Source: an uncultured archaeon
Lineage (GTDB): Archaea > Asgardarchaeota > Lokiarchaeia > Sigyniarchaeales > SOKP01
DNA: 64,000 nucleotides
Direction of reading: 5' to 3'
Assembly: GCA_964632315.1 (NCBI GenBank)
Contig: CAZWEM010000004.1
Span: 98,758-162,757 of the forward strand
A program made the translations under genes and the position numbers. The notes under the pieces are model-generated. The model saw only the letters and a list, made by a program, of their open reading frames with translations. It ran no database searches and was not told the DNA's origin. Numbering within the stretch: the stretch's first letter is position 1; each line of letters starts with the position of its first letter. Shown one piece after another: positions 30,549-59,409 of the stretch.

Positions 30549-32420
30549 ATGCTTTCATTCAAGGAATTTATTGAGGAAGAAGATTTAGTTTCCAAATTAA
30601 AATACCATTATCTCAGACATCCATTAGAAAACAGTAAAAAAATGCAATTGGATGATTTAATTCAAAAGACATTTAAATTAGATGAAAGTGATTTTGATAA
30701 TCAAAAAATCGACAAGTTTAGTTCCTTATATGAAAAAGAAATTCTTTTTAAAGATCGCCGAAAATCAGGTGAAATTTACACCCCAATAAACATTGTCCGA
30801 TACATTTTGAAAGAAATTGGATACAATGAAAGAAGTAATATCAGAGAGAAAACAATAATTGATATTAGTTGTGGAGTAGGGAGTTTTTTAATTGAATCTG
30901 TTAAGATACTAAAAAGAGTTTTATTAAAAAATCATGTAAATGACGATATCAAGATTCTTGAAGCAGAAAAGTTAATTCAAGTGTTCAATATAATAACAAT
31001 ACGGGTTTATGGTGCTGATTCGAACCCTATTGCTTGTATTCTATGCCAGTTAAACCTATTCTATACTTTAATGGATATAATTAGAGTTATAAAAGCAAAA
31101 AAGCCTCAGTATAGATTTGGCTTATTTAATATTATTAATATCAACTCAATCAAAATGCAATTCGACCAAAAATATGATTTTATAGTAGGAAATCCTCCAT
31201 ATTTGTTTTTAAGAGATATCTCGCTTTCTCAAAGGAAGTTGATAAAAGCCCAAAATTTGGAAACAAGCTCAGGACAATATGATCTATATCAAATCTTTCT
31301 TGAATTAGGTATCAAGCTATTGAAAAATAATGGTTTTTTGGGTTTTATTATTCCTGATTCAATTCTCGCTTTATCAAATAGAAGGAATATAAGAAAATAC
31401 ATTCTTGAAAATACAGTAATTAAAAAGATCTCTATTGTAGGATCTCAATTTGATGAGCCAATTGTTGCCAATGTTATACTGATCATTCAAAAAGAATTTC
31501 GAAAAACAAAACGGATTGAAAATCAAGTAAAAATCTCAAAAAATTTAAGTCGAACTGAATCTACTTTACCACAATTGTTATTTGAAAATCTTGATTATAA
31601 ATTTCTTGTCAATCTAGATGTGTTAGATATCCATATTTTAGAAAATTTAAGTCAAACATCAAAATTAAGAGATCTGATAAGAGATCAGCGATTTGAGATA
31701 CTTTTATCTCGAGGAGTTGAATTGGGTAAAGATGGAAAAATTATCTTCTGTGATAAATGCAGTACATACTCTCCGCTTCCAAAGAAAAGTTTAAAGTGTA
31801 AAACGTGTAATTCAGTCTTGCAGGAAGAAAAAATTGAAAGAATAATACAGAAAAAACCACCAATTGCTAGTAATGATGATTATAGAAGATTATTATATTC
31901 AATTAACCGATATAAATCATTAGAATTTAGATACATCTACATCAATAGACCAGGAATCATGTACAAATCCGAAGAAATATATAAGGATCGCATTGTAATT
32001 CGCCAATTGAATCAAGATAATTTGATATGTGCTACATATAATAATTTTGCCTATACCACCCAATCATTTTACAATTTAAAGATAAAAACATCCAAAATCT
32101 CAGAATTCACTAATTTTTATCTATTGGGATTATTGAATTCGAGTTTATTGTCATATTTCTTTATTAAATCTTTTGGTTCATATAAAAAGTTATTTCCACG
32201 AATTCTTATTGAAAAAATTGCGGCTCTACCAATTAGAATCCCTTTAAAAGAGAATGAAAAAGAGCTTTCAATTCAAATTCATCAAAATGTAGCAAATCTA
32301 ATTAAAAAAAATGATGCAGATCCGAGTATAATTGAAAAAATTGACGATTTGGTCTTTAAATTGTATGAAATTGAGAGAGATCAAATTTCTCACATTAAAT
32401 CATCATTAAATCATGTTTAA
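30549..32420 (+). CDS. N6-adenine DNA methyltransferase (gamma class, TaqI/Eco57I-like) with a zinc-ribbon insertion; apparently orphan
   Basis: GEIYTP, DISCGVGSF, GNPPY, TaqI_C-like LLGLLNS; CDKC..CKTC insertion. Confidence 0.88.
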   Translation: MLSFKEFIEEEDLVSKLKYHYLRHPLENSKKMQLDDLIQKTFKLDESDFDNQKIDKFSSLYEKEILFKDRRKSGEIYTPINIVRYILKEIGYNERSNIREKTIIDISCGVGSFLIESVKILKRVLLKNHVNDDIKILEAEKLIQVFNIITIRVYGADSNPIACILCQLNLFYTLMDIIRVIKAKKPQYRFGLFNIININSIKMQFDQKYDFIVGNPPYLFLRDISLSQRKLIKAQNLETSSGQYDLYQIFLELGIKLLKNNGFLGFIIPDSILALSNRRNIRKYILENTVIKKISIVGSQFDEPIVANVILIIQKEFRKTKRIENQVKISKNLSRTESTLPQLLFENLDYKFLVNLDVLDIHILENLSQTSKLRDLIRDQRFEILLSRGVELGKDGKIIFCDKCSTYSPLPKKSLKCKTCNSVLQEEKIERIIQKKPPIASNDDYRRLLYSINRYKSLEFRYIYINRPGIMYKSEEIYKDRIVIRQLNQDNLICATYNNFAYTTQSFYNLKIKTSKISEFTNFYLLGLLNSSLLSYFFIKSFGSYKKLFPRILIEKIAALPIRIPLKENEKELSIQIHQNVANLIKKNDADPSIIEKIDDLVFKLYEIERDQISHIKSSLNHV

Positions 32421-32585
32421 TTATACAAGGATTTTCTTGGAGAGATATGTCTTTAATATACGATCCCATTTGTCTGCTAATTCAGTTAGCCCAGTTTTCC
32501 TAAATAAGGAGACTGCACGTGTAAGTATGTCTTCTATTTCTTTTGTTCTATTATTGTTAATATAATTAAGGGAATAATCTTCCAT
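32421..32585 (-). CDS. Small 54-aa protein, paralog of 32683-32835
   Basis: Manual translation: MEDYSLNYINNNRTKEIEDILTRAVSLFRKTGLTELADKWDRILKTYLSKKILV. Confidence 0.72.
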   Translation of the reverse strand: MEDYSLNYINNNRTKEIEDILTRAVSLFRKTGLTELADKWDRILKTYLSKKILV

Positions 32586-32682
32586 TATATTGATTTATAA
32601 AAATAAAAGGAATATAAAGAAGAATATCATCAAGATGTAATAATTAGGACATCTATATGATAATATAGATAATATATGGAAA

Positions 32683-32835
32683 CTACATGAAATCCTTTGA
32701 ATCATAATAATTTTTTAAAATTCTCTCACTTTTCTTAGATAACTCGGTTAAACCTGCTTCATCGAAATAATTTTTCATTTTACCTAATAACCGGGCAATA
32801 TTTTCTTCATATTCTAAATCATTAGTCTCCATCAT
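32683..32835 (-). CDS. Small 50-aa protein, paralog of 32421-32585
   Basis: Manual translation: MMETNDLEYEENIARLLGKMKNYFDEAGLTELSKKSERILKNYYDSKDFM. Confidence 0.72.
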   Translation of the reverse strand: MMETNDLEYEENIARLLGKMKNYFDEAGLTELSKKSERILKNYYDSKDFM

Positions 32836-33078
32836 ATTATATTCACTCTAAAGTTTGTTATAAAGATTTATGTTATGGGGATAATGAGAATTTTATAGTT
32901 TACATTATATCTTTTTATATTAAAAAAATCTTTTTTGTATATTACCTATCGTTTTATCGAAAAACTTAAATCTTCTAATTTATAGCCCGAAATATTATTA
33001 AATTAAAAATAAGTATATAATTGATATAGAATTCAAGCAAAATAATGATAAATAAAATATAAGGGAGGTTATCTAAAA

Positions 33079-34002
33079 ATAGTACTTAAAGTTACATTCA
33101 ACGAGATTTTTGCAACTTGAAACGCTGCTGGTTATTTGATGGGTTTTTCAGTAAAAGAATTAACGTATAAAAACAAATATATACTATACTTAACGGAACA
33201 GGAGCTTGCAGGGCCATGGTTCAGTTTTAAACTGATTGGGAAACAGATAGGCAGTATCCCTGTAATACTAAAAAATATTGAACCAACTCCGATTTACAAA
33301 TTGGTGAATACTCGAACTGGTACCTTCATTGATCGTATTACGCTAGATTTCGACATCCAAGAATACTTGAAGAATTTAATGAAGAAGAATAAAATAATAA
33401 AACAAGAATTTAAAGCAGAGCATTCACTTATACGACTTTATGTAGATGTTTTTAATAAACCCAAAGTACCGTATATCAACACTTTTTTTACTCTTAAAAA
33501 CATCTCTGATTACAATTTAACTGACTTTTCCATGTATTTCGTATTTGATTTTGATATCAATGGATTAGACGGATATGATAACGATCTTTCTGGTTATGAC
33601 GAAGAAAATGATATTATTTATCAATATGATAAAACTGGATTACATGCTGGATTTTCACCCATCTCTCGATCGACTTTTCATGAAACTTGCCCAACTAAAC
33701 AATTTGCAATAACTAATGATCGCTTAAATCTCTCTAATAAAATACAGGATGAAACAGGAGAGATCTTATCGGCGCTTCAGATAAAATTCAAAACATTAGA
33801 ACCAGAACACTCCTTTCAAACTGCATTAGTTCTATCAGGAGGGCTAAGTAAAGAAGAGCTAGTTGAAAATATAATAGATGGAAAGGCTAATGCAATGAAA
33901 TTTCTCTCTCAAGTCAACCGGTCTGTGAAATCTGAACAAAGAAACAAGCAAGAGGAAGCTTTCATCAAAATTAATCAGCAGGAATCAGTCGATTGCAATT
34001 AA
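33079..34002 (+). CDS. Hypothetical beta-rich protein and candidate selenoprotein (Sec at TGA 33118-33120, proposed ATA start); the ORF track shows only 33136-34002
   Basis: SD GGAGGT at 33064-33069 lies 9 nt before ATA 33079. The frame reads VLKVTFNEIFAT-TGA-NAAGYLMGF and there is a SECIS-like hairpin in the 3' UTR. The CDS body is secure; the Sec extension is inferred. Confidence 0.7.
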
Positions 34003-34084
34003 TAAATCTAATTTGATGATTCAGGTAAAAAAGCCCAAGAGGAAAGTTACCTGATGAAAAACTCAGCAAGAGAAAAGATTTATT
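34001..34084 (+). promoter_or_regulatory. Eukaryote-type SECIS-like element in the 3' UTR
   Basis: ATGA (34016-19), helix TCAGGTAA/TTACCTGA (34021-28 / 34047-54), apical AAAAG-CC-CAAGA-GG-AAAG, TGAA (34055-58); outer helix AATAAATCT/AGATTTATT. Confidence 0.7.
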
Positions 34085-34094
34085 CCAATATTAA

Positions 34095-35321
34095 TTATGA
34101 TTCAAGAAAAAGGAACTTTATAGATTGATTTTTAATTATTTCATCTAATTTAATGATTTTTACAGGTTTTTTATAATTTCTGATAACTTTAGATTTCGAT
34201 ATTATATTTGAAAAGTTCTTTGAACAATTAGATGAGACAGTATTTAATATAATCACATAACATTTCATTTCACCCCATATACCTTTCCCATCAATGTAAT
34301 TTTGAAACGAATTCTCTTCGAACTTTGATTTTAATTCATCTTCTATGACTTGTTTGTCATCATCAAGCCCTTCATTATCGATTAATAAATAATCGATGAT
34401 TATTTTATTACTGTTCTCATCTTCTAAAAATAAGATCCCTTTTTGTTTTTGAAACTCATAAAGTATTCTAAATTGACCTGATTCTGAAAGCCTATATAGG
34501 GTATATAATAGATACTGATAATCTAAAATAAGATGGGAGCTTTCCAGTTTACTCTCAATAACATCTCTATAATCTTGATTTATTTCGTATCCAATTCCTT
34601 TTCGAAAGAGATTTTGAGCTACTTTTAATGAAGTCCCACTGCCTAAAAAGGGATCTAAAACAGTATCTCCGATAAAAGAAAACATTCTGATTAATCTATA
34701 CGGAATTTCTTCGGGAAACATTGCAATATGTTCTTTTTGTATAACTCCTGGAATTTTCCAATGTCCAACAAACCACTTTTTCCATTCACTTAAAGCTATT
34801 TTTGATAATTCTTTGGTTTTTCTATCTACTTTTCTTTTTTGACCTTCTACTTTCTTAAAAATTAAAATATGCTCATAATCATACGTTAATAAACCATTTC
34901 GTGGATAATATATCGAGCCCATCAATGAACATCCTCCTGTCGTGTTAGTTGTGCTTACTTTTTGCCAGATCACGTCTCCTAAATAATCAAATCCTAATAA
35001 TAGACAATCAGAAATGATCTTACTTGAAATCGATTCGATTCGATATCTTCCAAAGTCTCTAGCTCGAAGATATTGATCACCAACATTAATGACCATCCTA
35101 CAATGAGGCTCTAAAACCCGGTAACATTCTTTCCAAACAGTCGCTAATCGCTTAAAATATTCCTCAAACGAATCGAAATAACCAATTTGTGCTTCAGTTT
35201 CGTAATTTTTTATTTTTCCATAAGGAGGAGAAGTGATAATTAATTGTATAGAATTATCTTTAACCTCATTCATACGTTCCGATGACTTATAATAAATGTG
35301 AGGCTCATTAATTTCCCACAT
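34095..35321 (-). CDS. Beta-class N4-cytosine/N6-adenine DNA methyltransferase with a ~150-aa C-terminal extension
   Basis: TSPPY precedes H.AMFPEE and DPFLGSGT. Confidence 0.9.
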   Translation of the reverse strand: MWEINEPHIYYKSSERMNEVKDNSIQLIITSPPYGKIKNYETEAQIGYFDSFEEYFKRLATVWKECYRVLEPHCRMVINVGDQYLRARDFGRYRIESISSKIISDCLLLGFDYLGDVIWQKVSTTNTTGGCSLMGSIYYPRNGLLTYDYEHILIFKKVEGQKRKVDRKTKELSKIALSEWKKWFVGHWKIPGVIQKEHIAMFPEEIPYRLIRMFSFIGDTVLDPFLGSGTSLKVAQNLFRKGIGYEINQDYRDVIESKLESSHLILDYQYLLYTLYRLSESGQFRILYEFQKQKGILFLEDENSNKIIIDYLLIDNEGLDDDKQVIEDELKSKFEENSFQNYIDGKGIWGEMKCYVIILNTVSSNCSKNFSNIISKSKVIRNYKKPVKIIKLDEIIKNQSIKFLFLES

Positions 35322-35356: not shown

Positions 35357-36457
35357 TTAGTCAGAAATTTGTTGGAAATATCCAACTATTCGTAAGGTTC
35401 CATTAAACTTATTCATTTCAGTAATAATTCCGTTCAAACCCGTTCCGTCGTGAAATAACTTCTTGTCGAATTGAATTTCTATTTCACCAGATTTTCCAGG
35501 AAAAATTTCAACTCCTGAAGTAAATTTAAGTGGAGAGGATTTAAGATCCACTAATCCAAAATATTGAATACCATCATTTGGTTTAATGGAGCCTCCTTTT
35601 GGTTTATAAAATTGATTCAGATGAACAATGGCTTTGATCTTTTTTTCTGGAATAAATTTACCTTGAGTTGTAATCAAATTATCGCGACTAATCTGGTCTG
35701 CTGAGATGGTACCTTTCAATGCAAGCCCAACTCGATCCCCAACACCAGCAGTTTTAAAATTCCTATCTTGTTTTTGTATGCTTTTAATAATCACTTTCTT
35801 GTTTGTATCTTCATAACCGATTATCTCGACCATTTGACCCGCATATACCTCTCCTTTCTCTACAACACCTAATATAACGGTTCCAATTCCTTTAACTGGA
35901 AAAGCATGATCAATCATAACTTTACTATAATCTCTGCCAGAATCTCTATCGCGTGATAACTTTAAACCAAGCTCAATAATTTCTGCTTTTAAGATCTCAT
36001 AGTCCGTTTTCTGCTTTATATCAATTATTTTAGCAGCTTTTAAGCTGGTTGTAGAAAGAATTTTGAGTAATTTTTTCTTCAATTCTGGTAAAACCCATTC
36101 ATTTTTAGAGTCAACACCCGCAATTACAATCAGAGATTCAGTTTGATATAATTTATGATAAAGATCCATTCCAACGAGTATTTCACCAATAACAGCATTC
36201 AATTGTGTATTCGGATCAATAACTAATAGATGGATATTTGAAATAGAAAGGGTATGTAAAAAGGGTTTAATCTTTTCGGGGTATTCTACTGGTGTTAAGG
36301 CACAAAAAACATGATTATGAGCAGAATCTAACCTATTGAAGAACATGATATCACTCTTCGTTCCTGGAGACCCTATAGCTTGACCAACCAACTGCCTTAA
36401 ATCAAAATTGTCCCCGAGAATTCCCACGACAAAATTTTGTTCTGCTGCTTCACTCAT
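35357..36457 (-). CDS. Archaeal SelB-like translation factor (aSelBL; EF-Tu/SelB domain II-III protein with a degenerate G domain)
   Basis: GTKSDI, YPEKIKP, IDHAFPVKGIGTVILG, KSIQ..D, GDRVGLALKG; no GHVDHGK P-loop. Start reassigned to ATG 36457 (MSEAAEQ). Confidence 0.85.
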   Translation of the reverse strand: MSEAAEQNFVVGILGDNFDLRQLVGQAIGSPGTKSDIMFFNRLDSAHNHVFCALTPVEYPEKIKPFLHTLSISNIHLLVIDPNTQLNAVIGEILVGMDLYHKLYQTESLIVIAGVDSKNEWVLPELKKKLLKILSTTSLKAAKIIDIKQKTDYEILKAEIIELGLKLSRDRDSGRDYSKVMIDHAFPVKGIGTVILGVVEKGEVYAGQMVEIIGYEDTNKKVIIKSIQKQDRNFKTAGVGDRVGLALKGTISADQISRDNLITTQGKFIPEKKIKAIVHLNQFYKPKGGSIKPNDGIQYFGLVDLKSSPLKFTSGVEIFPGKSGEIEIQFDKKLFHDGTGLNGIITEMNKFNGTLRIVGYFQQISD

Positions 36458-36550
36458 TATTAAATTGAAATAATTTCTACAACAAAAGCTTTTCGATTTA
36501 GAGAATCTATATGTGAAAACATTATAATTAAACAAAAATTCTTATTAACC

Positions 36551-38094: not shown

Positions 38095-40911
38095 ATGGTA
38101 AATGCAAAAGAGATTGTAATAGTACCCGAAACTCACTGGGACCGTGAAACTTTATTGAATTGATGAATAAAGCGCGAGTGGTATCTCCCATTTCAAGAGT
38201 ATCGGGCGAGGCTTGTTCTACTGATGGACAAGTTAATTGATATATTAGAAAGAGACGAAAATTATTCAAGTTTTACCCTTGATGGTCAAGTAATTCCATT
38301 AGAGGACTATCTCGAAGTCAAACCAGAAATGGAAGAGAAGATCAGAACATTTGTAAAACAGAAAAGATTGTCTATTGGTCCGATGTACGTGCTACCCGAT
38401 GAATTTCTCGTAAGCGGTGAATCGCTCATTCGCAATTTATTGATAGGTTATCAATTATCGCAAAAATTTGGAGGCGTAATGAAAGTAGGATACATACCCG
38501 ATCCTTTCGGTCATATCGCCCAATTACCCCAAATCTTGAGTGAATTTGAATTACCAGCGATTCTATTTTGGAGAGGGTTCGGTAATGAATTCGAAGATAA
38601 CAAGCTTAATATGGAGTTTAATTGGGATGCTCCAGGAAATGCTGCTTCTATTTTGGCAATCCACCTAATTTTAAGTTACGGTTCAGTTGCTGACATCTCT
38701 ACTAAAAAGATTAAAGGGCAATATAAATCTGCATTAGGAAGGATAAAGCGTGTCGTATCAAAATTTGAACAATATACTGCAACTCCTTATATTGTACTAA
38801 ATAGTGGGTCTGATCATCACGAAGCCAGACCAGAAATTCCTGAAATTGTAACTCAATGGAATGAAAAATATCCAGATAAGTTAATGATTCAAAATGATTT
38901 TGAGTATTATATCAATAAAATTCTTGAGTTAAATCCGACTTTAAAATCATTTACTGGAGAATTACGGGGGGGACGGTATGCTCATTTGCTCTCAGGAGTA
39001 TTTTCCGCAAGAATGTGGATAAAGCAACGAAACAGTGCTATTGAATATTTGTTTGAAAAGTATGTAGAACCGATTTCAGCAATTTCATTGTTTCTCGATA
39101 AATATAATGAATTTAAATATCCCCAAGGATACATTCTCGCGGGTTTAAAATGGTTGATAAAAAATCATCCTCATGATAGTATATGTGGATGTTCAATTGA
39201 TCAAGTCCATAATGAGATGAGAACTCGGTTTGATTGGGCGGAACAAATAGGTGAAGAAATATTTAAAAATACAGCCTTGTATCTTTTTGATTTAATTAAA
39301 ATCGATTCATCAGGTAAAAAAATTCCATTTATAATATTTAACCCACTTCCGTGGAAAAGGGAGGATATCGTGAAATTTCATATTTCCTCACATATTAAGC
39401 ATGTAACGAAAGAAAGCCCGGGAGATTTCAGTATTATAGATTCAAACGGAAAAACTTTTCCATACCATGTTAAATATATTGAGGAAGAGCCTCGATATCA
39501 AACTGTTTTTTCTATTAGTCATTCATGTGGCTTTTTAGCTGAAATCCCTCCTTGTGGATATAAAATTTTTTATTTATTGCCGGATCAAAAACTCCCGATT
39601 TCTGAAAATAAGGTTTTAGAATTAAAAAGTGGGAAATATTTCATTGAAAACCAATACTATAAGGTGAATGTTGATCTTAACGGAAGGATTCATGTATTCG
39701 ATAAGGAAAGCAATAAATCATACGATGATATCTGTTTTTTTGAGGACGTAGGTGATTGGGGAGATGAATACGACTTTGCAGGACCACAAGAAAATCAGGT
39801 TGATCTCAGATTTACGTCAGAAGACTTAAATGTATTATCGATTGAGCAATTTATTGATGGGCTTTCCCAAAAAACAATCAGAATTGAAGCCAACTTGAAT
39901 TTACCTGCCGCTTTAACAGAAGATCGATATAATAGAGATGATTTTCTTGTTTCAAATTTAATCTCAATATTTATTTCACTTTATCAAGGAATCAAGCGCA
40001 TAGACTTCAAAGTGTTACTGAATAATAAGAGTAAAGATCATAGAATTCGGGTATTATTTCCTACGAAAATTAAAACTGATAAGGTAGATTGTGACGGGCA
40101 TTTTTATGTTGTATCCAGAAATGTAAATCTTCCATTAGCTGAAAAATGGGCTCAAAAACCCTTACCTACGAATCATCAAAAAGACTTTATCTCAGTTAGT
40201 GATAATGGAAATACATTCGGACTAATTAATAAAGGATTACCAGAATATGAAGCCGTAATAAATGAGGATGGAACGATTACATTAGCTATTACTTTATTGC
40301 GATGTATTGAGTGGTTATCAAGACACGATTTGAGTACGCGACCAAACAACGCCGGACCTGACTTAAGTACTCCCGGAGCTCAATGCTTAGGGAAACATAC
40401 ATTCGAATTTAGCATGGTTACCCATATAAATTCAAGTTGGATTGATGCTAAAATCCATCAAACTGGAAAAGAAGTTAATAACCCATTGAAAATCATCTTT
40501 CCCACGATTGCTCAGAGTCCTATGAGAACAACGGATAAGGTCATGCTTAAACCGTTTGGGATCTTGACTTATTTTGAAAATCCTCGAGAAGATATCAAGG
40601 AACCTTTCCTTCCTACTGAATTGAGCTTTTTAGAAATTGATAATCCAAACATTATCTTAAGTGCAATGAAAAAATCCGAAGCTCTTAGTGATTTAATCAT
40701 ACGAGTATATAATGTCTCTGATACACTTGAAGAAGGCATTATTAAATTGTATAAAGGACTCTCGATTTTAGAATGCAATATTGTAAATCTTTTAGAGGAT
40801 ATCCCCAAACGAAACATTTATGCTTCAATAAAGCTCATTAATGACAATACCCTAAAAATCTCATTAGATCCTAATGTGATAACAACAATGAAATTAAAAA
40901 TTAAAAAATAG
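38095..40911 (+). CDS. GH38 alpha-mannosidase (mannosylglycerate hydrolase MngB-like), split by a 30-nt BHB intron; exons 38095-38148 and 38179-40911, 928 aa spliced
   Basis: Spliced N-terminus MVNAKEIVIVPETHWDREWYLPFQEYR restores the GH38 HWDREWY motif; also LDGQ, PDPFGH and HDSICGCS. Confidence 0.9.
38149..38178 (+). other. Bulge-helix-bulge (tRNA-type) intron in a protein-coding gene
   Basis: Central helix CGTG/CGCG, bulges AAA and AGT, inner helix CTTTATT/AATAAAG, outer pairing TGGGA/TCCCA; contains in-frame TGA TGA. Confidence 0.85.
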
Positions 40912-57570: not shown

Positions 57571-59409
57571 TTGATGGTGGATACAGAAAATCCAATATCT
57601 TTGACAGTAACCAAATTTCCTCATAACTTGATCATTCCTAACATTATTAATAGCGTTACAATGCAAATTAGAAATAATCTTAATCAAGAAGCAGAATATA
57701 AATTTGCCTTTGAGGGTGAAAATCTTAAAGTTGATTTGAAATCAGATGAATTCTCAAGTAAAGTTAAGTTTGGACCAAATGAAACAAAGAATGTAAATTT
57801 GTATCTTAGTCCACTCAATGATGGTATTGGGAAATTAATTATTAATGCATACTGGTTAAAGCTTGTCGAGCAGAAAGTAAAAGTCCAAAAATTAAGAGAA
57901 AGCGTTTCAACTAAAAAGATTAAGAAAATTTTAGGGGATAAAAAAATTATACCGCCGATTTTAGCAGATTTTGATGCAAAAGAGTTTTTTAATTCCACTC
58001 TAAAATCTGATATTAAAAAACTTGAAAAAAACATCAAGAACTTGAGAAATGAATTAATAGAGGCTGGTGAAGAATCTAAAAAGAACCAAGAAATTGATTT
58101 AAATAACAACCTTAAGGAATTGGCAAGATCATATCTCTCTATAAGGGAATTCAATAAAGCTTTAGAAACTGCTTTAGAAATTTCCGATGAAAAGGAACAG
58201 TTGTCTTTATATTATAATTTGATTAGGGCTTATTCGGTTATTAGTTTTGAAGAATGTATGCAGACAGTTGCAGAATTAAAAGATAAGAATATAAAATTTA
58301 ATTTAATAAAGGATTTGGCAATTGATTTCGCGTTAGTAGATTTGGAGAAAATTGATTCAATTTTAAATTTAGTAGAAGATGGCTCATTTAAATTAAAAAT
58401 TATTATCGATGTCATCGGAAAGATTGCACCGAAAAACATTGAAATGGCGTTAAAATTATTCAATTATGTCCCTGATGAAACTTTAAAACTCAAAATTTTA
58501 TTTAATTTCATTCAAATGCTCTATGAGAATCAAAAAAAAGAGGAAATCCCTGAAATAGTTAAACTTATAAAAGAACTTGTCATAGATCCCCAAAATCACA
58601 CATTAATTGAAACAAATTCTCAAAATTTAGCATATAATTATTTGAAAGATGCAATTTATGTGCTTGCAGATGTGAAAAGTCCAGAATTTGCAGATTCTAC
58701 AATCAAGAATATTGCAAGAAAAGAAATAAGAGATAAATTAGAAATAGATTTGTTTGATGATCTTTATGTAATGGTTGACGAAGTGAGGACAAAACTTGAA
58801 CCAACTTTAATTTTCTCTCAATATTATAGTTTGAATACTTATAATTCTAAAATCTCTAGTGAGCTCCAAAATTTTGCATCTCTGGGTGGAAATGTGAGCA
58901 ATAATTTATTAACGGGTAATTTTGATTTCAATTTTGCATTAGTCTCTTTATTTAGTTTGAACTTTAGCATTTTCCCTTTTATTGACCGAATCTATTCTGA
59001 ATTTAATCATCACAAAAAACAGTCTTTTGCCTATTATATCTACCCTACAATCAATAATCACGATGAGGAAGAGCAAAGAGTCATGAAAAGAACACTGAGC
59101 CAGTTTTTTCCCTCGAGTAGATTTCCCTCTCATCTTATAATCTTCAATTTAGATTTTATTCCTTATCTGGGTCAACCGACTATAATTCTTTCGGGAGAAT
59201 CTGATAAGATTAAATTAAAAGTACAAGGTAACCTAGGTAACAAAGCCAACATTTTAATTGATCAAGAGATGTTTAAAGGTGGAAAATCTACAGTATTCTT
59301 AAGAGGAATATTTCAATCACCTAATATTGAAGTAATTAACCTAGTATTATCTTATGAGTTTATTAACGACTATAATATATTCAAAGAATTTTTAGAGTCA
59401 TTAACCTGA
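57571..59409 (+). CDS. Hypothetical protein: Ig-like N-terminus, helical-repeat middle, alpha/beta C-terminus
   Basis: 612-aa ORF; the domain layout is inferred from residue patterns only. Confidence 0.65.
   Translation: MMVDTENPISLTVTKFPHNLIIPNIINSVTMQIRNNLNQEAEYKFAFEGENLKVDLKSDEFSSKVKFGPNETKNVNLYLSPLNDGIGKLIINAYWLKLVEQKVKVQKLRESVSTKKIKKILGDKKIIPPILADFDAKEFFNSTLKSDIKKLEKNIKNLRNELIEAGEESKKNQEIDLNNNLKELARSYLSIREFNKALETALEISDEKEQLSLYYNLIRAYSVISFEECMQTVAELKDKNIKFNLIKDLAIDFALVDLEKIDSILNLVEDGSFKLKIIIDVIGKIAPKNIEMALKLFNYVPDETLKLKILFNFIQMLYENQKKEEIPEIVKLIKELVIDPQNHTLIETNSQNLAYNYLKDAIYVLADVKSPEFADSTIKNIARKEIRDKLEIDLFDDLYVMVDEVRTKLEPTLIFSQYYSLNTYNSKISSELQNFASLGGNVSNNLLTGNFDFNFALVSLFSLNFSIFPFIDRIYSEFNHHKKQSFAYYIYPTINNHDEEEQRVMKRTLSQFFPSSRFPSHLIIFNLDFIPYLGQPTIILSGESDKIKLKVQGNLGNKANILIDQEMFKGGKSTVFLRGIFQSPNIEVINLVLSYEFINDYNIFKEFLESLT

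Follow-up and report, generated by a model that had tools for sequence, protein, structure and literature searches.

The stretch of DNA analysed here, referred to as the window, comprises 64,000 nucleotides (nt) of contig CAZWEM010000004.1 from an uncultured archaeon of the Lokiarchaeia (Sigyniarchaeales; GenBank assembly GCA_964632315.1). This study concerns a gene on its forward strand (33079-34002) and the RNA element that follows it, which resembles a selenocysteine insertion sequence (SECIS). The reading frame of the gene is open from 33052, passes through a single TGA (33118-33120) and then through TTG 33136 and ATG 33139, and ends with TAA at 34000-34002. The listing of open reading frames (ORFs) for the window starts the gene at TTG 33136, and the public database protein starts at ATG 33139 with a length of 287 amino acids (aa). 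The latter has 402 close relatives, all of them hypothetical proteins of Asgard archaea (Promethearchaeota) with 286-289 aa, and every one begins with MGFS. Further upstream, a Shine-Dalgarno (SD) sequence at 33064-33069 is separated by 9 nt from an ATA at 33079-33081, from which the frame reads IVLKVTFNEIFAT, TGA, NAAGYL and then ATG 33139 (in full, I-V-L-K-V-T-F-N-E-I-F-A-T-[TGA]-N-A-A-G-Y-L-M). There is no ATG, GTG or TTG between the upstream stop (33049-33051) and the TGA. A preliminary description of this DNA had proposed a selenoprotein of 307 aa with selenocysteine (Sec) as residue 14, and the SD sequence, the ATA, the single in-frame TGA and the peptide all lie where it had placed them. 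The features discussed below are collected in Table 1.

Table 1. Features of the selenoprotein candidate, its 3' element and the neighbouring genes. Positions are those of the window except in the last row.
Feature	Position	Strand	Basis or remark
SD sequence GGAGGT	33064..33069	+	read directly; same spacing kept in orthologous loci
Putative AUA initiation codon, codon 1	33079..33081	+	ortholog codon counts; aligned to the ATG of the Cys form
Full coding sequence as proposed, 307 codons including Sec14, then TAA stop	33079..34002	+	open frame, ortholog comparison, AlphaFold2
UGA, predicted to be read as selenocysteine, residue 14	33118..33120	+	TGA 76/76; aligned Cys/U in homologs
Database-annotated start ATG (Met21)	33139..33141	+	ATG in 76/76 loci
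Penultimate Cys306, candidate resolving or partner thiol	33994..33996	+	kept in at least 90% of aligned rows, Cys-form homologs ending in WCK(D) included; putative role
Whole SECIS-containing structure of the 3' untranslated region, outer helix 34001-34009/34076-34084	34001..34084	+	fold, covariation, match to selD model
SECIS core hairpin, type II	34016..34057	+	fold; conserved core; published type II eSECIS-like model
Second small hairpin CUC-AGCAA-GAG, between SECIS hairpin and outer helix	34062..34072	+	compensatory changes
Eco57I/TaqI-type DNA methyltransferase	30549-32420	+	flanks the selenoprotein candidate
Two small paralogous ORFs, 54 and 50 aa, motif ...GLTEL...ILK.Y	32421-32835	-	occupy the place of the double-GTPase gene
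N6/N4-type DNA methyltransferase	34095-35321	-	flanks the selenoprotein candidate
EF-Tu-domain-2 protein, 392 aa, degenerate G domain	35357-36535	-	best NCBIfam match SelB, 74.5 bits, far below cut-off
Insert sites in four orthologs (locus coordinates)	L044:2941-2995, L047:2938-2995, L048:2939-2995, L077:2942-2995		see text

Evidence that translation begins upstream of the annotated start comes from the orthologs. Eighty genomic loci of the relatives were taken and the DNA was read upstream of the annotated Met. In 76 of them the frame extends upstream as (K)IVLKVxFN[ED][IV][LF]AT-TGA-Nx[AS]GY[LVI]-M, with TGA at codon 14 in all 76. Column entropy has a three-base periodicity from the codon after ATA (-57) to the annotated ATG, the same as in the accepted coding sequence, being low at the first and second codon positions of this upstream segment and high at the third. 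Conservation of codon type is exemplified by GGN occurring with all four third bases, by TAY, and by FNEI alternating with WHDV. Upstream of the ATA the periodicity ends, and in-frame stops are frequent in many loci between the SD sequence and the ATA. Codon 1 across the 76 loci is ATA in 67, ATC in three, ATT in two and TTG in one. Since the ATG of the Cys-form orthologs described below aligns exactly to the ATA codon, AUA 33079 is supported as the putative start, as the preliminary description had suggested.

Comparison with more distant homologs bears directly on the identity of residue 14. When the extended protein, with the TGA read as Cys, was searched against 1.84 billion representative sequences, distant homologs of 316-322 aa were found that align from residue 3-6 and carry C-x-N-C-K-E-K-G-Y opposite the F-A-T-U-N-A-A-G-Y of the present protein. 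A Cys at position 14 stands within CVNC, CLNC, CANC or CIDC in matches P0129-P0149 of this search (P0129, P0131, P0133, P0144 and P0149) and in orthologs from a sister family of the same order (f3). Three long matches (P0148, P0152 and P0154) were discarded as low-complexity or Ig-like. Of 400 Asgard genomes surveyed, 219 carry the gene, including 123 of the 134 genomes of the family to which the source genome belongs (f1), where nearly all of the full-length matches listed show one TGA. The full-length matches in f3 are stop-free, start with ATG and read M-x-x-x-I-D-[FY]-[ED]-T-[IV]-C-[VI]-x-C, the second Cys being position 14; the motif in this sister family is M..ICVNCKEKGY, and the proteins end in WCK(D). 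One f3 ortholog (L094) matches the 33079-34002 protein with a BLASTP E value of 4e-31 and places C14 opposite U14. No SECIS-like element was found after the stop of the Cys-form f3 orthologs. SepSecS is still present in the Cys-form genomes, which therefore points to an exchange at the level of the gene and not to loss of the Sec trait.

In distant lineages (f4, f2 and f31) the same site reads CTVU, CSIU, CKWU, CSSU or CASU, and one such relative (L098) pairs its U with that of the present protein in a BLASTP alignment with an E value of 2e-37. Behind the distant CxxU relatives L098-L102 no match to a strict SECIS pattern turned up; in L098 and L099 a conserved GUGA hairpin follows the stop. 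The residue three positions before the Sec is F in the F-A-T-U of the present protein and F, L, I or Y across f1, Cys being absent there. As read from these alignments, the family exists in three states, namely CxxU, xxxU (the 33079-34002 gene) and CxxC.

The 3' untranslated region (UTR) provides the second line of evidence. The element consists of an AUGA (34016-34019), a U (34020), an upper stem of 8 bp formed by UCAGGUAA (34021-34028) and UUACCUGA (34047-34054), an AAAAG bulge (34029-34033), a ministem of CC (34034-34035) and GG (34041-34042), a U (34055) and the closing GA (34056-34057), so that the hairpin runs in the order AUGA-U-UCAGGUAA-AAAAG-CC-CAAGA-GG-AAAG-UUACCUGA-U-GA. It is closed by a 9-bp outer helix that appears in both the minimum-free-energy and the centroid fold. 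The single sequence folds with -17.1 kcal/mol (z -1.9). The element stands 10-20 nt after the stop in essentially all orthologous loci (about 80 genomes). Among 77 distinct sequences there is no variation in the A, G and A of AUGA or in the 3' GA, and the U is kept in at least 90%. The upper stem is mostly UCAAAUAA/UUAUUUGA in the family; the gene under study differs from this by two compensated pairs, and three further loci have other compensated changes in the stem.

Conservation and covariation were assessed in 79 sequences. Pairing holds in 93.3% of the cells of the four-helix structure, as compared with 25-51% in controls with slid partners, and double changes occur in 16 of 20 pairs, the observed values being reached by none of 500 shuffles. 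The small second hairpin (helix 4) is conserved and has compensatory changes as well. It is the ortholog comparison (TGA in 76/76 loci, RNA covariation) that excludes chance; the single sequence does not. In its published form, the type II eSECIS-like model has a core of GA_[G/A]A (mostly AUGA_GA), an upper stem of 7-15 bp, a bulge of 4-12 nt, a ministem of 2-8 bp and an apical loop of 2-6 nt (PMC11227280), and the element fits this model with its AUGA/GA core, 8-bp stem, 5-nt AAAAG bulge, 2-bp ministem and 5-nt loop. The euryarchaeal (methanogen) type, with an asymmetric GAA_A bulge between a lower and a G+C-rich upper stem, is not present at this position, where the AUGA/GA quartet and an A+U-rich 8-bp stem are found instead. 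The AUGA/GA core, 8-bp helix, AAAAG bulge, CC:GG pairs and 9-bp outer helix lie where the preliminary description had placed them, the second hairpin inside the outer helix is an addition to it, and its claim of a eukaryote-like SECIS in the 3' UTR is supported by the covariation.

An independent covariance model (R2) was built only from the 3' UTRs of 26 selD genes from genomes of the same family. Its best match in the window, with both strands searched (128 kb) and filters off, is at 34009-34085 with 15.6 bits and an E value of 0.1. Over 14 diverse orthologous loci (92 kb) the element was matched in 13, with a top score of 26.1 bits (E 1.3e-4), and of the 15 matches at E values up to 1 in these 92 kb, 13 fall on the 3' UTR of the gene and two elsewhere. 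A second model (R1) built from the family's own elements was searched against the whole genome and gave 60.2 bits for the element itself and at most 28 bits for the next match, with none of the further matches behind known selenoprotein genes; the model is too sequence-specific, and 150 of 13,209 first-look candidates were scored, so that this outcome counts neither for nor against the element. A scan of the genome with a loose AUGA...GA pattern gave 80 matches, mostly due to chance, and located the hdrA-vhuD operon and two other SECIS-bearing loci.

Several hairpins of similar appearance were noted elsewhere in the source genome. On the reverse strand of contig C14 (about 57585-58200), a 159-codon ORF has two adjacent TGAs (...HAD-UU-ADNM...), and its stop lies 17 nt before the SECIS-like hairpin AUGAU-UUCUUUCA-AAAAAGAUUAG-UGAAAGAA-GGAC. 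A SECIS-like hairpin of the hdrA-vhuD type was found on the reverse strand of contig C8 (about 107300-107800), where an ORF of 120 codons that contains in-frame TGAs ends 17 nt before it, and another of this type on the reverse strand of contig C3 (about 40465-40600), with no obvious long ORF within 270 nt.

The machinery for selenocysteine synthesis and insertion is present in the source genome (4.45 Mb, 99.5% complete, 8.6% contamination). A tRNA-Sec was detected with 61.3 bits and was also called by ARAGORN (SeC, anticodon tca). It is adjoined by a SepSecS gene (372.6 bits), an EFSec-like factor (236.9 bits) is encoded on the same contig, and a PSTK-like kinase scored 157.8 bits. For PSTK and EFSec the match covers the full length or the N-terminal part and scores below cut-offs curated on other lineages. 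Two selD genes, each with one in-frame TGA, complete the set. It was also observed that SepSecS, tRNA-Sec and the EFSec-like factor lie within 5.5 kb (contig C35:1160-6640), forming a small Sec-machinery cluster.

The extended protein was modelled with AlphaFold2 from an alignment that combined Sec-form, CxxU and Cys-form sequences, which gave a mean predicted local-distance difference test score (pLDDT) of 89.6 and a predicted template-modelling score of 0.88. Residues 3-11 of the extension are built as the first beta-strand of the predicted sandwich, and the extension therefore appears to be part of the fold. Sec14 is placed in the loop after this strand (pLDDT about 66-76), and the model has a two-residue bridge at 304-305, adjacent to Cys306. 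The predicted fold is an all-beta supersandwich with C-terminal helices. It is not a thioredoxin fold; the preliminary description was right that this protein has neither such a fold nor a CxxU motif, although relatives of the protein do carry CxxU or CxxC at this site. The best structural matches of the model (residues 1-280) in VIA-align are N-domains of GH15 and GH94 enzymes, with Z scores of 19-20 and a root-mean-square deviation of 2.6-3.2 A over 216-238 residues. Foldseek was in agreement, and the ESM Atlas lead to the GH94 supersandwich scored 0.83. Searches with family profiles gave no Pfam family at an E value of 0.01 (PF06165 included) and no NCBIfam family for the protein, a PDB profile search gave no relevant match, and the Cys homologs are likewise without a Pfam, NCBIfam or PDB-profile family. 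The fold shared with the GH15/GH94 N-domains, as predicted, carries no functional evidence.

Because relatives carry CxxU or CxxC and the Cys near the C-terminus is conserved, Sec14 most likely serves as a centre of redox activity or of metal(loid) binding. Cys306 is a conserved residue and Cys204 is not. In the present family, where the Cys at -3 is lost, Sec14 and Cys306 would probably act as a selenenylsulfide pair. The possibility that the protein is the restriction endonuclease belonging to the flanking methyltransferases was considered and rejected in view of its 70-95% identity across genera, its occurrence in 123/134 genomes and its supersandwich fold; no similarity to nucleases was seen in the 33079-34002 protein.

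Four of the orthologs (L044, L047, L048 and L077) contain an insert of 29, 32, 31 and 28 nt, respectively, directly after ACU-UGA, and similar inserts were found in four genomes of the 400-genome survey (G188, G192, G195 and G226). The inserts break the frame, yet coding potential persists on both sides of them and the 3' SECIS remains intact. In the folded insert a 4-bp helix (CUUG/CAAG) has a 3-nt bulge on either side (AAU and AAA), compensatory changes occur in an inner helix, and ACU-UGA-AAU is restored when the two bulges are cut at the same position. By its sequence and fold, the ortholog insert looks like a bulge-helix-bulge (BHB) mini-intron of the tRNA type in a messenger RNA. A comparable case occurs within the window itself, in a GH38-like gene (38095-38195, forward strand), where ...ETHWDRE is followed by 30 nt with two stops and then by WYLPFQ...; this insert folds as CGUG/CGCG, an AAA bulge and CUUUAUU/AAUAAAG, in the same helix-bulge-helix shape as the ortholog inserts.

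On this evidence the 33079-34002 gene would be a true selenoprotein gene with a known kind of decoding system, belonging to a family new to the published lists; we put the probability of this at roughly 0.9. Translation would start at AUA 33079, 9 nt after the strong SD sequence, and the UGA at 33118 would be decoded as selenocysteine by Sec-tRNA(UCA) and an archaeal EFSec, the recoding being under the direction of the eukaryote-like type II SECIS that lies in the 3' UTR, about 900 nt downstream. The expected product is a cytoplasmic beta-supersandwich of 307 residues with C-terminal helices and with Sec14 in the loop after strand 1. A wider formulation is also likely: an unlisted, Asgard-wide selenoprotein family of non-thioredoxin fold (a GH15/GH94-N-like supersandwich) with CxxU, xxxU and CxxC variants, an AUA start in f1 and, in some genomes, a BHB mini-intron of 28-32 nt after the Sec codon that would make synthesis dependent on splicing. 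The 307-aa selenoprotein with Sec14 envisaged in the preliminary description gains support from the TGA in 76/76 loci and the aligned Cys or U. The checks proposed there turned out in the same direction: TGA or Cys at position 14 with conservation on both sides (TGA 76/76, Cys in homologs), a covariance model of lokiarchaeal SECIS elements (best match in the window, 13/14 orthologous loci), the Sec machinery (tRNA-Sec(UCA), SepSecS, EFSec-like, PSTK-like and two UGA-containing selD genes) and the published Asgard selenoproteome lists consulted, in which the family does not figure.

Several points weigh against this interpretation. AUA is a poor start codon at which initiation is expected to be inefficient, and we know of no Asgard archaeon in which such initiation has been demonstrated. 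A second start could be provided by the ATG at codon 21, which is invariant. The R2 match at 34009-34085, with its E value of 0.1, is weak and leaves the outer helix unaligned. The Rfam SECIS families (e.g., RF00031) gave no match in the window at the gathering threshold, nor in 33950-34150 at E values up to 10; the element is predicted to work like a SECIS while falling outside the Rfam SECIS models. The weakest step is the redox or metal(loid) role, which is drawn from motif logic by itself, the f1 proteins being without the partner Cys of CxxU. Finally, Asgard archaea lack SBP2 for the recognition of a SECIS (PMC4989117; PMC11227280).

Among the other explanations, the one that survives best, although unlikely, is that the gene has two products, a long Sec form from the AUA and a short form without Sec from the codon-21 ATG, for example when selenium is scarce. 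It is favoured by the inefficiency expected of AUA and by the codon itself, which is ATG in 76/76 loci of the Sec family whereas the homologs of the Cys form have Phe or Ile at the Met21 position. However, no SD-like sequence precedes ATG 33139, the short form would be without strand 1, and the invariant Met may be structural.

It is very improbable that the UGA is a true stop, with a conserved 13-codon leader ORF ending at 33120, the protein made from ATG 33139 and the hairpin serving as a terminator or being an unrelated L7Ae-type kink-turn. Gene callers and databases do start at the ATG or TTG, the ATG is invariant and AUA is a weak start, but the five codons between the TGA and the ATG are conserved as codons and in the same frame (GGN x4, TAY and an L/V/I codon), so that a leader peptide plus a separate ORF is insufficient as an explanation. 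Moreover, the N-terminal segment is contiguous and ATG-started in the Cys-form and CxxU-form relatives, AlphaFold2 places it as strand 1, ATG 33139 has no SD sequence ahead of it, and the 3' element is matched by the model of selD SECIS elements and missing from the Cys-form genes.

Readthrough of the UGA by a near-cognate tRNA (Trp, Cys or Arg), stimulated by the 3' structure, has hardly any probability: while the inserted residue is not distinguishable from sequence data, the Sec system of the genome is complete, the layout of the 3' element recurs in the selD and hdrA-vhuD SECIS elements of that genome, and the aligned residue of the homologs is Cys in CxxC or U in CxxU, a classical Sec signature. 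The suggestion that the 3' element is the gene of a C/D-box small RNA between two convergent genes can be given almost no weight, as its sub-threshold matches to Rfam C/D snoRNAs (23.5 bits against a gathering threshold of 43, and 17.6 against 45) are expected from the shared kink-turn motif (UGAUGA ... CUGA), whereas G.A pairs stacked below an internal helix of 8 bp, together with an A-rich bulge and a ministem, are the arrangement of a SECIS and not of guide regions, and the element, matched by the selD SECIS model, always stands 10-20 nt after the stop of this gene (about 80 genomes).

The order of the genes around the selenoprotein candidate is conserved in relatives. Upstream in the relatives lie an Eco57I/TaqI-type methyltransferase (51/80 loci) and then a 670-aa protein with two small-GTPase domains (78/80 loci), which is followed by the gene. 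The double small-GTPase gene (Arf-like plus Ras/Roc-like) is missing in the window. Downstream in the relatives, a convergent N6/N4 methyltransferase is found in 43/80 loci; the gene after it encodes a phosphodiesterase in 39 loci and, in 27, an EF-Tu-domain-2/SelB-like protein whose G domain is degenerate. The synteny of the methyltransferases across genera is unusual for mobile restriction-modification genes, and no nuclease is evident. We see no defensible functional link between the neighbouring genes and the selenoprotein candidate.

Published surveys of Asgard selenoproteins do not include this family. Five families and 'no further selenoprotein candidate' were reported in Loki (Mariotti 2016, PMC4989117); seven were listed from a homology search to known families (Huang 2024, PMC11227280); HdrA, Prx, MvhD, SPS and VhuU were given by two further studies (Sun 2021, PMC9723677; Valentin-Alvarado 2024, PMC11291895), and a 2026 review made no addition to the seven Asgard families (PMC13188914). 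The family is absent from the lists in all of these, which cover the literature incompletely and leave priority not provable, and full-text literature searches for novel Asgard selenoproteins returned nothing further. All seven published Asgard families were found by homology to known ones, and the gene described in this study would add one that occurs in about nine out of ten f1 genomes and, in variant forms, in other Asgard lineages. It would also expose a blind spot: an N-terminal UGA behind a non-AUG start leaves a normal-looking ORF, which is missed by gene callers and by searches for UGA-containing ORFs alike. The Sec, CxxU and CxxC variants form a natural series for studying Sec/Cys exchange, and for the type II SECIS, a proposed intermediate towards the eukaryotic SECIS, the element would provide a second and independent example. 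To our knowledge the supersandwich fold is new for a selenoprotein, and the chemistry may be new as well.

Among the known systems with which the protein can be compared are the Cys-form f3 orthologs (found, for example, in two single-contig genomes, G138 of 6,035,313 bp and G135 of 4,361,485 bp). They have a common length and domain order with it, align from residue 1, and share the G-Y motif after the active site and the Cys near the C-terminus. They differ in their ATG start, in having CxxC (CVNC) instead of FATU, in an identity of about 26% and in the absence of a SECIS-like element. The N-domains of GH15 glucoamylase and glucodextranase (1lf6, 1ulv), of GH94 phosphorylases (2cqs, 8bou) and of cyclic glucan synthase (8rf9) share the predicted fold; in contrast to these, the protein stands alone without an (alpha/alpha)6 catalytic domain, the identity is 11-15%, and its Sec/Cys motif is absent from those domains.

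As to the decoding element, the type I SECIS of the hdrA-vhuD operon in the source genome (contig C52) has a near-identical core of AUGA-N, an 8-bp stem and N-GA, the stem being UCCUGUAA compared with UCAGGUAA at the present locus, and has an AAAAA-rich loop followed by a small hairpin, just after the stop codon. Unlike the present element it has no ministem, and a single SECIS serves several UGAs in two genes, whose products are both known redox enzymes with Fe-S/FAD domains. Eukaryotic SECIS elements of form 2 share the tandem G.A quartet of AUGA...GA, the unpaired As after the upper helix, the ministem and the location in the 3' UTR; the present element differs from them in an upper helix of 8 bp (9 with U.U) and in the extra hairpin on the 3' side of the internal loop. 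The type II eSECIS-like 'lokiSECIS' of selD/SPS in the Lokiarchaeia (Mariotti 2016, PMC4989117; Huang 2024, PMC11227280) belongs to an unrelated protein, with the motif GUxCK as against the xxxU and AUA start of the present gene, and the sequence of the upper stem is specific to the present family (UCAAAUAA, or UCAGGUAA at this locus). In both cases, however, an N-terminal in-frame UGA is combined with a 3'-UTR element, and the shared layout extends to the outer helix, AUGA-N, an upper stem of 6-8 bp, an A-rich bulge, a ministem, N-GA and a second hairpin, which has a loop of the UGCGA or UGCAA type in selD and its counterpart here in CUC-AGCAA-GAG. Both selD genes of the source genome are followed by elements of this same layout, the second hairpin and the outer helix included.

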